In this document: positions 4,400-60,178 of the stretch, piece after piece
Layout: every line of letters starts with the position of its first letter
Numbering within the stretch: position 1 is the stretch's first letter
Origin: an uncultured Spirochaetota bacterium
GTDB lineage: Bacteria > Spirochaetota > Spirochaetia > SZUA-6 > CAVTHK01
Assembly: GCA_963734495.1 (NCBI GenBank)
Contig: CAVTHK010000003.1
Span: forward strand, 224,001 to 288,000
Length of the DNA stretch: 64,000 bases
Direction: 5' to 3'
Position numbers and translations under genes: made by a program
Notes under the pieces: generated by a model
Told to the model about the DNA's origin: nothing
Seen by the model: the letters and a program-made list of their open reading frames with translations, nothing else
The model's database searches: none

Positions 4400-5837
4400 T
4401 CAGCGGGCGTTCTTCGCCCTTGCGCGCCCGCCGCGGCCCGCGGGCGCGGTCTGCCCGGCTTGCGCGGCCTGGCCCGCCTGCCCCGCCTGGCGGGCTCGCC
4501 CGTCAGGGGTCGTCGCCAGGCACTCGCGGAGCGCGGGTTTCGTCTCCAGGTCCTTCTTGAGCGCCTCGGCCCGCTCCTTGTTGACGTACGCCGGGCTCTG
4601 GAAGCTGTAGGTGAAGTTCGTGTGCACGTCGTAGGTGCCGGCCATGAGCGCGTAGGCGTCCTCGGCCATCACGAGCTCCTCGTCGGTCGGGATGACGAAG
4701 ATCCGGACCGGCGAGTCTTCCGTCGAGATGATCGTCTCCGCGTTGCGGGTCACCGCCGCCTGGTTGCGCCCGGCATCGAGCCGGATCCCGAGGCCGTCGA
4801 GCCCTTCCAGGGAGCCCCCGCGGATGGCAGGGCTCATCTCGCCGACGCCGGCGGTGAACACGATCGCGTCGACCCGGCCGAGCGCGGCGTAGTAGGAGCC
4901 GATGTACTTTCGGATCCGGTACGCCTCGATCTCGATCGCCAGCGGCCGCGAGCTTGTCGGTCTCGCGCGCCTTCATCACGTCGCGGCGGTCGGTGTACTT
5001 CTCCGTGATGCCGCGGATCCCGCTCATCTTGTTGAGCGTCCCCTCGAGGATGTCCGGGGCCACGCCTTCCTTGCGCATGATGTAGAAGTCGATCGCCGGG
5101 TCGTGGTCGCCCGCGCGCGTGCCCATCACGAGCCCCTCGAGCGGCGTCATGCCCATGGACGTGTCGTAGGAGCAGCCGTTCATGACCGCGTTGGCGCTCG
5201 CCCCGTTGCCGATGTGCATGCAGATCAGGTTGCAGTCGAACGGGCTCTTGCCGAGCAGGACCGCGGCCCTCTTGGCCACGTAGAGGAACGAGGTGCCGTG
5301 GAACCCGTAGCGCCGCACCCCGTACTCCCGGTACCACTTGTAGGGCAGGGCGTAGATGTAGGCCTTGGCCGGCATGGTCTGGTGCCACGCGGTGTCGAGG
5401 CTCACCGTGTGCGGGACGCGGGGCAGGACCTCGCGGGCGGCCTCGATGCCCATGATGTTGGCGGGGTTGTGCAGCGGGCTCAAGTCCGCGACGTCGCGGA
5501 AGATCCGCAGCGCCGCGTCGTCGACCACGATGCTCTTGGCGATCTTCTCGCCGCCGTGCACCAGCCGGTGGCCGACCGCCTTGATGTCGTTGATGTCGGT
5601 GAGGGCGCCGATCTTCGGGTCGAGCAGCGTGCGGATGATCAGGTCGATGGCTACGCGGTGGTTGGGGCAATCGTGCTCGATCGTCACGGTCTCGCGCCCC
5701 TTGGCGTAGTGGCTGATAAAGGAGCCGCCGACGGTCACGCGCTCCACGATTCCGCGGGCCCGCACTTCCTTGTTGTCCCAGTCGTAGAGCTGGTACTTGA
5801 CCGAAGAGCTGCCGCAGTTGAGCGTGAGTATGTCCAC
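4400..5837 (-). CDS. ackA: Acetate kinase (indel near 4945)
   Basis: GTG start after [59 protein letters not shown]. Confidence 0.95.
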
Positions 5838-5904
5838 CGGTCGTCCTCCGAAGCTGTCCCAACTGGCGAGAGGCCGCGATCTCGAGCCGTGAGCTTTGCG
5901 TCCG

Positions 5905-5933
5905 ATCTTAGGGAGCCCCCTCCGCTTTGTCAA
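5905..5933 (-). promoter_or_regulatory. Sigma70 promoter of ackA
   Basis: TTGACA-17bp-TAAGAT on the minus strand. Confidence 0.7.
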
Positions 5934-6041
5934 CGTGACGGCGGCGGCCGGCGGGCCACGTTCGTAAGCGAATGTAAGAACAGGTTGAAGGAAGGCGCCC
6001 GCGGCCTGCCGGGGCGGCACGCGGCTTGCTTTCCGCACGCC

Positions 6042-7356
6042 ATGGTGCGCGCGCTTGCTCGCGGCGCTCCTCCCGCTCGCCGCGGCCGGAGCGCAGCAGC
6101 TCACGCTCGAAAGCTGCGTCGAAGGGGCGGGAGGCCGGCGGGCGCGCGTGGAGCTGGAGGAGCCCGAGCGGCTGCGGGTCTTCGCCCTCGCCGACTACGA
6201 GGATGACGCGCTCGCGCGCGCGGCTGCCGGCGTCTCCACGCCGTGGCTCGTCGCGGGCCCGCTCGCGCCCGCCGGCCTCCTTCGGCTGATCGAGGCGCCG
6301 TTCGCGTGCGGGCCTGCGGCCGACGTGCACGACGAGGCCACGGGGCTGCTGCTCGACGGCTCCTTCGACGGGAGCTCCCGCAGCGGCGCGATCGCGTGGC
6401 CGGCGCCGGGCTCCCTCGGCGTGGGGGCGTGGGGCCGCGACGGCCGCCTGACCGCCGTGCTCGCGGCAGCGGGCCGCCCGCTGCCGCCCCTGCAGTGGGA
6501 GGCCGCCCTGGCCCGCTCGGCGCCCCCGGCCGACGCGGCCGGCGAAGACTGGTACTACGGGTACGCGCCCTGGCGGGGCGGGGCGCTTTCGCATGCGGCG
6601 GCTCGCCTGCGCGCGGACGCGGGCGCGCTCGCCGTCTCCGCGGCGGCCGCCGCGAGCATCGCCGAGCGGGCCGCGCCGGGGGCCTGGCTGCTGGCGCGCC
6701 TGGAGGCGTGCGGCCCGCAGGTCCGCGCAGATGCTCTCCTCGGCCTCTCGAACGGCGCCTACCGCGACACGGGCGGCGGGCTCGAGCGCACGCTGCGGCA
6801 CGCGGCCCTGCGGGTCGAGGCGCGCTCCGCCGCTGCCCGCCTCTCGGCCGAGGCACGCGGGAGCCGCGGCCTCGAGGCCTTCGGCGGCGAGGCGCCCTGG
6901 GAGCTGGCCGGCGGCGCGACCGCTGCCGTGGGCCGCGCGAAGCCGGCGCTCTCGCTCGAGGCGTCGGCTGCATGGAAGCGCCGGCGCGACGCCGCCGGCG
7001 AAGAGCTGTCTTCGGCGTCCTTCGATGCGTCCGCCGCAGCCGAAGCCGGCGCCTTTTCGGCGGAAGCCTCCGCCGCGAGCGGCGGGCGCATCGCCGTTTC
7101 GGGCCGCTGGAAGGGCCGCGGGACCGAGGTCTCGCTCGAAGGCTGCTGGAAGCGGAGCGCGCTCGACGCGGTCGAGGCGGCGTGGCGAGCAGGAGCCGAC
7201 GCCGCGCGCCTGGAGATCGCCGCCGGATGGCTCGCGGGCCCGCCGGCGCGCTGGCTGTTGTCGATCCGGTGGCGCAGAAACCTCGGGCGCCGGGAGCCTC
7301 AGCGGCCGTCCCAGTCGCCCACGAGAAGCACCTCGCGCTCGAGCTCGAAGCCGTAG
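6042..7356 (+). CDS. Hypothetical exported Ala/Gly-rich protein, possibly an outer-membrane beta-barrel (start and end uncertain; ATG 6042 is out of frame with the 6055 ORF)
   Basis: Signal-peptide-like LLAALLPLAAAGAQQ; long ORF 6055-7356 with amphipathic strand-like segments and many Trp. Confidence 0.55.
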
Positions 7357-10027: not shown

Positions 10028-11698
10028 ATGGACGAGACAGTCCCTTCGAAGCCGCCGTTCGACTTCCGGCGCAGCCTTCCGTACCTGATCCTGTTCACGC
10101 TCCTGCTCGCGCTCTTCCTGAGCTCGGCGCTCTCCCAGAGGCCGCCCGAAGTCCGTTCGATCGCGCCCGACGACGCCCGGCCCGGCGAGGAGCTGGTCAT
10201 CAAGGGGCGTTTTTTCGGCCGCGAGCGCGACGGCGCCCGCGTGAGCGTCAACGGGTATTCGCCGCCCTCGTCGGCCTACCTCTCGTGGACGGACCGCCGG
10301 ATCAGCGTGCTCGTCCCGGAGGAGATGCCCGCGGGCCTGCTCGCGGTCGTCACGAAGAACGGCGAGAGCCGCGAGGTGGTCCCGTTTACGAACGAGGCCT
10401 ACGTGCCGCAGCTCGCCTCGGGGCCGCTGGTCCCCGGCCAGCCGTACATCAGCGGCTTCGAGCCCAAGAGCGGCCCTCCCGGCACTCCCGTCACGATCAC
10501 GGGCATCAACTTCGGGCTCGACCGCGGCTCCGCGCGGGTGGAGTTCGCCTGGATCCCCGGCGACCGGACGCGGAACCTGCCCGACGTGGCGGGCTCCGAC
10601 ATGCTGCCGGCCCTCGAGTACAACCAGGACTACATCTCGTGGGAGGACCGCGAGATCCAGGTCCGCGTGCCGGACGGCGCCTCCTCCGGCAGCCTGCGGG
10701 TGGTCACCGACAAGGGCGAGAGCAACTCGGTCTACTTCGAGGTGCAGGACATCGTCGGCACCAAGCTCTTTACCAACAAGCGCATCTACCACGTGCAGTA
10801 CGGGGTGGAGGTCGCCGATGTGGCCACCTCGGGCACGCCGGGGCGGCTGCGGGTGTGGGTGCCGCGGCTCGTGCAGGGGCCGTCCCAGCGCGAGGTGCGC
10901 ATGATCGCCCGGGAGCCCGAGCCTCTCTTTGACAACTACGAAGGCTTTACGCTCTTCGCGTTCGACGACATCGGCAGGGGCGACCGCAGGCAGATCAGCC
11001 AGAGCTTCATGCTGTCCGCCTACGAAGTGGAGACGAGGGTCAACGCCGCGCGCGTCCCGACGGCCTACGACGCCTCCAGCCGCCTCTACCAGCGGTTCAC
11101 GGCCTCGGACCCGATCACGCCCTCCGAGGACGCGGGCCTCGTCAAGACCGCGCGCTCGATCGTCGGCCAGGAGACCAACCCGTACCTCAAGGCGCTCGCC
11201 GTCTACAACGCCGTGGTGGGCTTTCTCGGCTACGACCCGAAGGCGACGGACGTCCTGGAGTCCCTCAAGACGCGCAAGGGCGACGCCTCGGTCTACTCCC
11301 TGCTGTTCACCGCGCTGCTGCGGGCCGCCGGAGTGCCGGCGAGGCCGGTGGCCGGTTACGTCGTGGGGTCCGACGGCAAGGCCGTCAGGCACATGTGGGC
11401 CGAGTTCTACCTGGAGCAGCTCGGCTGGGTGCCCGTAGACCCGGCGCTCGCCGACGGGCTCAAGTTCGGCGACTTCCCGCGGGTGCTCAACCCCGCGTCC
11501 TACTATTTCGGAAACATGGACAATCAGCACATCATCTTTTCGCGCGGTCTCGCCGTGCTCAAGCCCATGGATCCGAGGGCCTCGGTCGTGACGCGCCGCG
11601 ACGCGCCGGGGCTCCAGACGATCCACGAGGAGTACTCGGGCGGGATCACGGGGTACACGGCGCGGTGGACGGAGCTCGAGGTGCTCGGGATCTACTGA
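10028..11698 (+). CDS. Membrane-anchored protein with two IPT/TIG domains and a transglutaminase-like domain (catalytic Cys replaced by Ala)
   Basis: N-terminal TM; IPT repeats PEVRSIAP..GEELVIKGRFFG..SWTDRRISVLVP and PYISGFEPKSGPPGTPVTITGINFG..SWEDREIQVRVP; TGase-like GDASVYSLLFTALLRAAGVPAR..HMWAEFY..GWVPVDP. Confidence 0.88.
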   Translation: MDETVPSKPPFDFRRSLPYLILFTLLLALFLSSALSQRPPEVRSIAPDDARPGEELVIKGRFFGRERDGARVSVNGYSPPSSAYLSWTDRRISVLVPEEMPAGLLAVVTKNGESREVVPFTNEAYVPQLASGPLVPGQPYISGFEPKSGPPGTPVTITGINFGLDRGSARVEFAWIPGDRTRNLPDVAGSDMLPALEYNQDYISWEDREIQVRVPDGASSGSLRVVTDKGESNSVYFEVQDIVGTKLFTNKRIYHVQYGVEVADVATSGTPGRLRVWVPRLVQGPSQREVRMIAREPEPLFDNYEGFTLFAFDDIGRGDRRQISQSFMLSAYEVETRVNAARVPTAYDASSRLYQRFTASDPITPSEDAGLVKTARSIVGQETNPYLKALAVYNAVVGFLGYDPKATDVLESLKTRKGDASVYSLLFTALLRAAGVPARPVAGYVVGSDGKAVRHMWAEFYLEQLGWVPVDPALADGLKFGDFPRVLNPASYYFGNMDNQHIIFSRGLAVLKPMDPRASVVTRRDAPGLQTIHEEYSGGITGYTARWTELEVLGIY

Positions 11699-11842
11699 GC
11701 ACAAGGATGTGCTCGCCCGGCGCGTACACGGATGTACAGGCGCCGGGCTGAGCGCCGGGCTGAGTCCATGGATGGACTCGCCCAGGCGCGTACATGCGCC
11801 TTGGCCCGCGTATTCGCCGGGGATGTACAAGCGCCGGGCTGA
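11697..11842 (+). repeat. Tandem two-hairpin repeat with CA-NGGA-TG loops (CsrA-site-like; REP-like element or sRNA)
   Basis: GAGCACA-AGGA-TGTGCTC (11697-11714); GCCCGGCGCGTACA-CGGA-TGTACAGGCGCCGGGC (11715-11748); GAGTCCA-TGGA-TGGACTC (11762-11779); interrupted fourth hairpin ending GGGATGTACAAGCGCCGGGCTGA. Confidence 0.8.
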
Positions 11843-11942
11843 CCCGCGGCCCCGGCGGGCGCCTGCGCCGCCCGAGGCGGCGCTCTCCGGGCGCTCGCGG
11901 GCTGCCGGCGAGCCACGAAAACCTCCGCGAACGCCTTCAAAG

Positions 11943-11971
11943 TTGACACCATCTGAGCCGATTCCTATACT
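11943..11971 (+). promoter_or_regulatory. Near-consensus sigma70 promoter of the Crp-family gene
   Basis: TTGACA-17bp-TATACT. Confidence 0.8.
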
Positions 11972-11992: not shown

Positions 11993-13225
11993 ATGTCTGG
12001 TCCGCAATTAACGTTAGTCAACTTCCGCAAGGGCGCGTATGTCACCGTCGAGGGCAAACAGCGCGCCGATCAGTTCTACATCATCCGCAGCGGCAAGGTG
12101 CAGGTCCGCAAAGAGGTCGAGATCGCCGAGGAGCAGGAGGAGAAGGTCCTCGTCCCCGGCGACTTCTTCGGCGTCGTGTCGACGATGTCCGCCCACAGCC
12201 ACATCGAGACGGCGATCGCGATCACCGACGTTTCCCTGATCGCCGTCGGCCGCGACCAGTTCGGGCTGCTCATCCAGCGCAACGCGCCGGTCGCCATGAA
12301 GATCATCTTCCAGTTCTCCAAGCGCATGCGCGCGCTCGACGGGGCGCTCACGCGGGTGAACTTCAAGAACACCGCGGGGGAGAACCCGTCGCACCTGTTC
12401 AAGGTGGCCGAGTACTACCTCAAGCAGAGCCAGTACAACCAGGCCTACTACTCCTACTTCCGGTTCCTGCAGCACTGCCCGGACGACCCGAACGCCAAGG
12501 TGGCGCGCGAGCGGATGGCGAAGATCATGCCGTACGCCAAGGCGGTGTATCTCGACGGGGGAGGCAGCGACTTTACGCGCGTCTACCCGAAGAACACGAT
12601 GATCTTCTCCGAGAACGAGCCCGGCAAGGAGCTGTACATCATCCAGAAGGGCGTGGTGAAGATCAGCAAGATCGTCGACGACAAGGAAGTGCTGATCGCC
12701 CTCCTGCCGCAAGGCGACATCTTCGGCGAGATGGCGCTGCTCGACAACCGGCCGCGCTCCGCGTCGGCCGTCGCCCACGAGGACGTGACCCTGCTCGCGG
12801 TCAACCAGTCCAACTTCGCCCGGATGGTGCAGACGCAGCCCCAGATCGTCACGCGCCTCACGACCCTGCTCGCCGAGCGCATCTGGTTCGTCTACAAGCA
12901 GCTCGCCAACGCCATGATCAAGAACCCCCTGGGCCGCCTGTACGACTCGCTGATGCTGCAGCTCGAGAAGAGCAAGGTCAACATCGCCCACGGCGAGCCC
13001 TACACCTTCGAGTTCGGGCCCAAGGAGCTCACCGGCATGGTGGGGCTGTCGGCCAACGAGGGCGGCGACCTGCTGCGGCGGCTCTTCGAGAACAGGCGCC
13101 TCAAGGTCGTGGACAACAGGATCCAGACGTCCGACGTCGAAGAGATCAAGAAGCAGGCGGAGTACTTCAAGAAGATGGAGTCGATCGACAAGGCCCGCCG
13201 CGAAGCCCGCGCCGGCACCCAGTAG
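11993..13225 (+). CDS. Crp/Fnr-family protein: cNMP domain, TPR-like hairpin, second cNMP domain, C-terminal winged helix
   Basis: Two cNMP domains (FYIIRSGKVQV..PGDFFG; LYIIQKGVVKI..GDIFGEMALLDNRPRSASA); TPR-like LFKVAEYYLKQSQYNQAYYSYFRFLQHCPDD. Confidence 0.88.
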   Translation: MSGPQLTLVNFRKGAYVTVEGKQRADQFYIIRSGKVQVRKEVEIAEEQEEKVLVPGDFFGVVSTMSAHSHIETAIAITDVSLIAVGRDQFGLLIQRNAPVAMKIIFQFSKRMRALDGALTRVNFKNTAGENPSHLFKVAEYYLKQSQYNQAYYSYFRFLQHCPDDPNAKVARERMAKIMPYAKAVYLDGGGSDFTRVYPKNTMIFSENEPGKELYIIQKGVVKISKIVDDKEVLIALLPQGDIFGEMALLDNRPRSASAVAHEDVTLLAVNQSNFARMVQTQPQIVTRLTTLLAERIWFVYKQLANAMIKNPLGRLYDSLMLQLEKSKVNIAHGEPYTFEFGPKELTGMVGLSANEGGDLLRRLFENRRLKVVDNRIQTSDVEEIKKQAEYFKKMESIDKARREARAGTQ

Positions 13226-13244
13226 CCGCCCGTCTCCGATCCCG

Positions 13245-14310
13245 CTACAGAAGCTCCGAGCGCCCCTTTCCCTTGACTTGCTCGACCACGTCCCTCACGA
13301 GCTGAGAGCTCCCGGCGCGGCAGACCAGGCAGACACCGTTGCGGATCACGACGATCAGCCCGCTCACCCCCGCGAGGGCCACGGGGATGTCCGAGAGCAC
13401 GAAGTTCCCGTCGCCGCCCGCCGAGGCGACCTCGCCCTGGGGCCGGGCGAAGCGCGCCACTTCGTCCCAGCTCCCCACGTCGCTCCAGGCGAAGTCGGCC
13501 TCGACCATCGCGGCCCGGCGGCTTTTTTCCATGATGGCGTAGTCGATCGAGATCGAGCGGAGGCCGCCGTAGATCTCGCGCAGGCCCGCTGAAGGGGCGA
13601 CGATGCCGCGGCGAGGCGCCCGCTTCGCGAGCGCGGCCCGGCCGGCGCGGAACGGCTCGGCCAGCCACGGCGCCAGCGCGCCCGCCTCCTCCAGGAACGA
13701 GCGGCGGCGTGAACGCGAACATCCCGGAGTTCCAGTAGTAGCCGCCGCTTTCGAGGTAGCGGCGGGCGCGCTCGGCGTCGGGCTTCTCGTGGAAGCTGCG
13801 CACGGCGAGGCCCTCGCCGAGCCGCTCGCCGGCTTCGATGTAGCCGTAGCCGGTCTCGGGCCGGTCGGGCCGCACCCCGAAGACCACGAGGCGTCCCTCG
13901 GCGGCGAGCGCGGCGGCGCGGGCGACCGCGGCGGCAAAGCGCTCCTGCGGCTCGATGATGTGGTCGGCGGCCAGCACGAGCAGCGGCGCGTCCGCCTCGC
14001 CGCGGGCCTCGAGCCAGGCGCAGGCGTAGGCGATCGCGGGCGCCGTGTTGCGCGCGGCCGGTTCGGCGAGGATCGCGAGGCCGGGCGCCCGCAGCCCGCG
14101 CGCCTGCTTCAGGACCGCCTGCGCCTGGCTCTCGTGGGTGACGACGAGCACGCGGCCGGCAGGCCGCAGGCCGAGCGCGCGCGCCAGCGCCTGCTGGAGG
14201 AGCGATCGGCCGCTGCCGAGGTCCAGGAACTGCTTCGGCGAGCCTTCGCGCGATGCCGGCCACAACCGGGTGCCCGCGCCGCCCGCCAGGATCACGACGT
14301 GCTGGATCAT
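13245..14310 (-). CDS. manC: Mannose-1-phosphate guanylyltransferase (indel near 13708)
   Basis: VILAGGAGTRLWPASR..PKQFL, EPAARNTAPAI, PETGYGYI, FHEKPD, WNSGMF, SIDYAIMEK, WSDVGSW. Confidence 0.92.
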
Positions 14311-60028: not shown

Positions 60029-60062
60029 GGCCCACGGTAGCAACTGTCGCGGCCCCGCGCAA

Positions 60063-60178
60063 GCGCCAGGGATGGCGCGGGCCCGGGCGCTACAGGGATG
60101 TAAAGCGCCCGGGCAAGCGCCAGGCAAGCGCCAGGCGCCCGGGCAAGCGCAGGCAGCGCCAGGCGCCCGCGCAAGCGC
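60063..60178 (+). repeat. Second locus of the CA-NGGA-TG two-hairpin element, followed by degenerate CAAGCGCCAGG repeats
   Basis: GCGCCA-GGGA-TGGCGC (60063-60078); GCCCGGGCGCTACA-GGGA-TGTAAAGCGCCCGGGC (60081-60114). Confidence 0.8.

Follow-up and report, generated by a model that had tools for sequence, protein, structure and literature searches.

The closest described system to the element reported here is TwoAYGGAY (Rfam RF01731; Weinberg 2010, PMC2864571, of which part was accessible), a motif unexplained since 2010 for which both CsrA binding and mobility have been suspected. Its extended form is multicopy, according to the accessible portion of a preprint (bioRxiv 10.64898/2026.09.22.753630), and the partly available literature reports TwoAYGGAY from Pseudomonadota, Bacillota and gut metagenomes but not from spirochaetes. 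The spirochaete repeat that we describe is real and is a variant of this known but unexplained kind. In both, a hairpin (H1) is followed by a bulged stem capped by a second hairpin (H2), the two loops reading CA-N-GGA-Y-G, and several TwoAYGGAY seed rows carry GCAAG just before H1, as the repeat does. Paired loops of the AYGGAY type are thus present in the repeat, with the second loop position free; its commonest loop, AGGGAY, also occurs in TwoAYGGAY seed rows. Both are multicopy and variable in number, and for TwoAYGGAY the sources, as far as they are available, already propose CsrA binding together with a mobile-like spread.

The repeat differs from TwoAYGGAY in lacking an enclosing basal stem, in a loop spacing of 17-18 nt against ~22, in a length of 54 nt against 168 model positions, and in occurring as tandem arrays placed at stop codons or -35 boxes. 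Regarding the basal stem, 12 single units folded at -21.2 kcal/mol with their own flanks and at -22.2 kcal/mol with mismatched flanks, and the copies at stop codons begin directly at coding sequence. A genome search with RF01731, whose sensitivity is unproven since control genomes gave no signal, returned nothing at E<=1 among the 150 candidates scored of 242, and 20 loci scanned gave nothing at E<=10; RF01690 had no match in the genome, and Rfam scans left the element without any family match. Because it has no basal stem and no model score, we regard the repeat as a TwoAYGGAY-like core rather than as a member of that family.

Three further systems invite comparison. The CsrB/CsrC and RsmX/Y/Z RNAs likewise carry a series of GGA-loop hairpins, arranged two by two as would fit a CsrA dimer, but the repeat is not a stand-alone gene, has no terminator and no Rfam match, and occurs in dozens of polymorphic copies (a stand-alone promoter and terminator were sought by consensus scan on the window array and by eye on the remaining arrays). 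With REP/BIME sequences it shares short intergenic hairpins, mosaic arrays and a frequent position right after stop codons. The REPs linked to RAYT transposases carry a 5' tag, GTAG or CGTC. The spirochaete units appear to have no such common tag (GTAG precedes some TAG-type units and many of those in f2, a family of the same order, but not the CTGA or TCAA types), no Y1 transposase is found beside or with the repeat, and its stems covary instead of keeping their sequence. The GTAG tag of REPs is noted in the accessible part of PMC3184786. Subgroup IIB1 group II introns, in the available text of PMC12584367, are mobile and land at the stops of unrelated housekeeping genes with the protein left intact; found at start or stop codons, they are large ribozymes with a reverse transcriptase, whereas the repeat is 54 nt long, noncoding and also uses -35 boxes. 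A literature search, with most subscription papers outside its reach, found no description of the spirochaete repeat or of landing at -35 boxes.

An array at the stop codon of a transglutaminase-like gene

Coordinates given without a contig label refer to the window, the 64,000-nt stretch of contig CAVTHK010000003.1 that was analysed; the genome studied (G000) is 83% complete. The host gene (10028..11698, plus strand, as are all features of this array) encodes a TIG and transglutaminase-like protein of 556 aa, identified with Pfam. Its native TGA stop (11696-11698) is the landing site, forming with the last codon the target hexamer TACTGA (11693..11698) and serving as the outer 5' arm of hairpin 1. 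H1 of unit 1 (11697..11714, from sequence and folding; loop CAAGGATG) begins inside this TGA, with which bases 11713-11715 (TCG) pair. A long bulged stem (P2) capped by H2 follows (11715..11748, from folding and covariation; loop CACGGATG), and then 12 nt that duplicate the junction together with the 3' arm (11749..11760). Unit 2 opens with a junction TGA and hairpin H1' (11761..11779, H1' alone occupying 11762-11779; loop CATGGATG) and closes with a P2/H2 whose loop is split and which ends in CTGA (11780..11842), the covariance-model match extending over 11759-11845. Lodged between two G of this last GGA loop is a second module (11797..11821), composed of a CGCYYTGG tail and a hairpin of the TACT-loop type.

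The three hairpins that the first-pass annotation had placed at the stop of this gene are present as described, including the compensatory change (CA..TG against TC..GA) between hairpins 1 and 3, and the array holds three intact GGA loops. Its interrupted fourth hairpin is likewise confirmed, and is interrupted because the second module, 25 nt in length, breaks the loop. The unit length of ~65 nt needed correction to 53 nt, counted from TGA to TGA in this array; the apparent 65 nt arises from the 12-nt duplication of the 3' arm.

The array region folds at -90.2 kcal/mol (z = -4.2; 0 of 200 shuffles were as stable). The opposite strand also folds (z = -5.7), and since both strands fold and wobble pairs show no bias, the strand is not assignable from either. 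A consensus scan of the window array revealed no promoter belonging to it, nor did a terminator turn up between 11500 and 12100; the downstream gene, which encodes a cNMP-binding protein, has a separate sigma-70-like promoter (11943..11971, plus strand, consensus scan). A second array in the window, of the promoter class defined below, lies at 60059..60120 (plus strand) and abuts a minus-strand TTGCGC-N17-TACCGT upstream of a Mur ligase gene. Elsewhere in the window, genes resembling acetate kinase (4503-6104) and mannose-1-phosphate guanylyltransferase (13000-14310, minus strand), both named by eye, seem to shift frame midway, possibly through sequencing errors.

A dispersed family with covarying stems

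Across the genome, the repeat unit is ~54 nt long and consists of a junction triplet, H1 and the long bulged stem capped by H2. In a genome-wide search with a two-loop descriptor, GGA gave 33 matches and other loop trimers at most one each, with the exception of CCC (5), the reverse complement of the commonest loop, so that the hairpin pattern goes beyond chance. A covariance model built from 32 units returned 52 matches at E<=0.1 among 150 candidates scored, and merging profile matches with split-loop matches yields 51 arrays. All but one of 43 profile loci fall outside called genes, the calls coming from a purpose-made hexamer model (4524 genes, 76% coding) that misses some genes. Arrays run head-to-tail and are mosaic, with nested modules; terminal inverted repeats of the MITE type are absent from the unit structure.

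Over the 32 units, 89.9% of stem-pair cells are paired, compared with 29-40% in slid controls; 0 of 500 shuffles reached this level, which is a count and not a probability because the copies are related. Of the 17 stem pairs, 15 change on both sides. The descriptor forced two pairs beside each loop; the nine-pair P2 stem, which it did not force, is 91.7% paired. While the stems covary, the CA, the GGA and the closing G of the CA-N-GGA-Y-G loops are invariant. The earlier suggestion of a dispersed family conserved in structure is thus borne out by the 51 arrays, their covarying stems and the shuffled controls.

The second module recurs at the same place, as a 25-nt tail and hairpin between the two loop G, in 15 loops genome-wide under a strict pattern; under a looser one, 36 of 135 loops are split by it. 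With scan lengths set by hand, split loops number 6 of 38 in the stop class and 30 of 97 in the promoter class (Fisher P = 0.086). The module is also found standing alone elsewhere in the genome. Another dispersed repeat of G000 is a 17-mer present 13 times, five of these in a tandem array of 48-nt period (C1:335617-335809) and the others at eight places. Near-identical duplicates join C4 with C15 (flagellin locus) and C1:859k with C18:53k (one array), suggesting assembly redundancy or contamination.

Among 70 genomes of the order scanned, the repeat-rich ones are G000, the same-genus genome G001, family f2 (14 of 15 genomes with at least 11 matches and one with 8) and two genomes of family f5. 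All 19 repeat-rich genomes carry csrA; family f7, in which csrA is found in 0 of 22 genomes, has no repeat, and 28 further genomes of the order bear csrA without it. The co-occurrence of csrA and repeat is clade-level, the kin not being independent. Within the order, the 15 pattern matches in G032 resemble a 27-nt tandem repeat and are excluded from the element's tally. A sample of 151 genomes from the phylum, in each of which only 35 candidates were scored, gave at least 8 with a match. Scanning a genome collection for the G000-type pattern returned two loci, each titled as a spirochaete. In both repeat-rich f5 genomes, csrA is closely followed downstream by a small GIY-YIG gene (G012:C47:72887-73099, G018:C3:36039-36254).

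Landing sites, empty sites and a candidate pairing rule

The 51 arrays were classed by hand and the classes then checked in part, which assigned 15 to stop codons, 32 to promoters and 4 to other sites; C18:53709, a duplicate of C1:859557, was left out of the site-class and triplet statistics. Every stop-class array (14 distinct) starts exactly at a stop codon on the sense strand, and all 14 distinct arrays that start with TGA or TAG are at stops (context-matched product ~2e-6). TAC is the last codon at seven of these arrays, compared with 1.4% of genes, and 5 of the 46 called genes ending in TAC-TGA carry the repeat. H1 sequesters the stop codon in all 12 stop-class units tested. Arrays of the promoter class lie directly against an opposite-strand -35-like hexamer, at its upstream edge (TTGAC in 22 arrays; C3:175200, C7:123628 and C13:375262 are degenerate or start some bases off the hexamer). 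A TAnnnT box stands 16-18 nt from the TTG hexamer in 26 of the 32, compared with 40% in the best-matched context (P = 2e-6), although the null omits selection against insertions inside promoters, and part of the site enrichment may therefore come from selection combined with a degenerate RYYRR preference. Behind the promoter lies a divergent called gene in 31 of the 32, and the remaining promoter appears to drive a tRNA; 14 of these arrays are antisense to both neighbours. Host and neighbouring genes are functionally unrelated.

In G001, 11 of 12 loci fit the stop or -35 class by inspection, six of them confirmed by script. Among 27 arrays in family f2, 11 end long reading frames at TAG, 4 stand 7-8 nt from a -35 box, 1 is inside a gene and 11 are elsewhere; there, TAG is also seen away from stops and may be part of the element itself. 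None of 9 arrays from two distant spirochaete genomes and a few single matches lies at a stop or -35 box.

Some arrays occupy more unusual positions. At C7:143860-144202 of G000, a promoter-class and a stop-class array meet head-on, fused, between rpmB and a DUF503 gene, and neither is present in G001. In family f2, units at L063 (G028:C9:85800-90000) lie between tRNA genes, directly 5' of an opposite-strand tRNA, a third kind of gene edge. At L056 (G001:C120), a unit antisense at the start of an ABC-ATPase-like gene appears, by eye, to be read in frame as the N-terminus. The array at C2:200576-200663 of G000 stands beside an apparent gene, on the opposite strand, that we take to be 5S rRNA.

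Comparison with G001, a sister species ~80% identical to G000 and 99% complete, provides empty counterparts of these sites. Where a G000 array has an alignable G001 site, 12 of 14 are empty in G001, and in 10 of those 12 the native stop or promoter edge continues as far as the element (of the two less clean sites, C5:131455 gives a poor alignment and C5:135296 possibly retains a remnant). The other two sites are filled in both genomes with differing sequences and, conversely, six G001 arrays have empty G000 sites. Loci without synteny at the insertion side (C13:39356, C9:73242, and L050, L053, L055 and L057 of G001) were left out of the count. Among the relatives listed, the window site is empty in G001 and 18 others, with the orthologues ending at the same residue in 19 of 19; the contig of a closer relative skips the array, passing from 11698 to 11935 by way of 46 other letters. 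A metagenome scan for the host gene returned distant relatives only (29-49% identity). Since most comparable sites are empty in G001 and native edges are mostly kept, the repeat is likely mobile, while at ~80% identity loss and gain are not separable per site. Nor can a target duplication be fixed, given the divergence of the empty sites: most TGA arrays are bounded by CTGA on either side, yet CTGA also closes two copies at TAG sites. Most CTGA arrays have their 5' tetramer again at the 3' end, which TAG arrays do not.

The transposons of the IS200/IS605 group choose their target by pairing with an internal guide. The repeat may resemble them in this respect, as in 17 of 19 units the three bases after H1 can pair with the landing triplet (permutation mean 8.8; first units with a 3-nt inner arm), TGA facing TCG, TAG facing CTA or CTG (CTR) and CAA facing TTG; the permutation P of 5e-5 overstates the pairing because about three subfamilies underlie the count. 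No triplet pairing was seen in units with a 4-nt inner arm. The pairing fits an internal guide by analogy with IS200/IS605; it also fits exchange at a core common to element and target, or later repair of the hairpin.

CsrA, mobility and rival readings

The first-pass annotation put the hairpins forward as a candidate CsrA-binding element, possibly a CsrA-titrating sponge borne on 3'-UTRs. CsrA recognizes ANGGAN, in which the N positions are free. The loops do match the CsrA consensus, with CA, GGA and the closing G invariant, and csrA and fliW, the two genes it proposed to look for, are both in the genome, adjacent in the flagellar cluster. The CsrA keeps R6 and R44, and its nearest structure is PDB 5dmb, which we take to be the FliW complex. 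Four flagellin leaders each place an ANGGA hairpin 5' of the ribosome-binding site, with no Rfam family over threshold there. The CsrA SELEX consensus is quoted in PMC8668096, the accessible part of which also mentions a CsrA-like ncRNA in Leptospira biflexa and in vitro binding of a GGA hexaloop by Leptospira CsrA. The latter ncRNA, and the CsrA binding already proposed for the look-alike TwoAYGGAY (PMC4333381, as far as available), are precedents that deprive a CsrA-binding RNA element of novelty. On these grounds, binding of CsrA by sense copies is plausible, somewhat more so than its contrary.

We consider it likely that the 54-nt twin-hairpin repeat spreads as a non-autonomous mobile element, and predict that its sense copies bind CsrA as a side effect. 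The element would move as a folded single strand or small circle and be joined on the 3' side of a YRR triplet whose context is RYYRR-like, the triplet pairing with the element's own hairpin-1 arm and the joining enzyme being supplied in trans. Copies would survive where the gene end or promoter stays intact. Those at stop codons would be co-transcribed, presenting CsrA with a two-loop 3'-UTR site, with a possible effect on mRNA decay or a slight titration of CsrA. A more ambitious version, possible but doubtful, is that internal 3-base guides aim subfamilies of a mobile TwoAYGGAY core at safe edges (TGA/TAG stops or the -35 TTG), thus seeding CsrA sites transcriptome-wide in a supposedly FliW-only lineage, with a REP-like module parasitising the element and disabling its loops. 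Were CsrA to bind the stop-codon copies, a selfish repeat would rewire the CsrA regulon gene by gene; were it not to bind, the CsrA-like loop would be what the mobilising enzyme reads. Having both occupied and unoccupied sites, together with two target classes and a proposed rule of pairing, this minimal form makes both questions raised by TwoAYGGAY testable on a 54-nt substrate.

The 3'-UTR placement holds for the window copy, which lies in sense at a stop, but extends to only 15 of the 51 arrays, the 32 others classed at promoters pointing away from them. A dedicated sponge RNA is unlikely, because 14 arrays are antisense to both neighbours, the window copy yielded no promoter or terminator of its own and sites turn over within the genus; a quarter of the loops, moreover, are split. 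A distributed sponge, whereby the host keeps the copies and their transcripts titrate CsrA alongside FliW, would account for loops that vary only at the two positions free in ANGGAN, and would suit a genome with csrA, flagellin leaders bearing similar loops and a lower share of split loops in sense copies; the in vitro binding in Leptospira (PMC8668096, in part) points the same way. We nevertheless judge it improbable, given that only the stop-class arrays are clearly on mRNA in the GGA sense, that wobble pairs are not biased to the GGA strand (7 G-T against 12 A-C, P = 0.36), that the window copy lacks its own promoter and terminator, that sites are not conserved within the genus and that FliW is already present.

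Mosaic arrays, nested modules and the folding of both strands could belong to a plain DNA-level repeat of the REP/BIME type, with a degenerate RYYRR target, a gene-edge pattern due to selection alone and a CsrA likeness that is the coincidence of a transposase-read hairpin. Short spacers bear this out in part, GTCAA being a -35 box in 40% and TACTGA a stop in 50%, as do the distant genomes, where none of the arrays was at either kind of site. Yet the site enrichment remains after context matching, no RAYT is associated, and the loops vary precisely where CsrA is indifferent, which makes this reading distinctly improbable. Least probable by far is cis-acting control, in which the stop-codon hairpin slows termination or protects the 3' end with CsrA as a switch: H1 does sequester the stop codon, and in E. 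coli a REP no more than 15 nt from a stop is reported to lower translation (PMC12306157, citing earlier work, in the part available), but such control covers only the stop class, whose host genes share no function, and the arrays are not conserved in G001.

For the favoured reading of a mobile element, a mobilising enzyme was sought among Y1/RAYT, IS110 and GIY-YIG candidates, and none was found. The RAYT/IS200 transposase that the first-pass annotation had set against its own proposal does not appear in the genome at its 83% completeness, and Y1 transposases are also absent from G001 and four other repeat-rich genomes. Around 30 Y1 loci examined there was no element nearby; GGA words adjoining one RAYT-like gene (L096) are not hairpin units. 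G000 has a single GIY-YIG match, within a long frame that is probably UvrC, and 12 GIY-YIG loci had no paired loops. IS110 is present in 17 of the 19 repeat-rich genomes, yet 13 of the 22 f7 genomes have it too, and its five copies in G000 sit in attC-like sites. About ten such attC-like integron cassette repeats were observed in G000 (C1:1400-15600, C9:22600-26700, C11:87-1061, C18:961-2186), the five IS110-family transposase copies being inserted at the same point of these sites.
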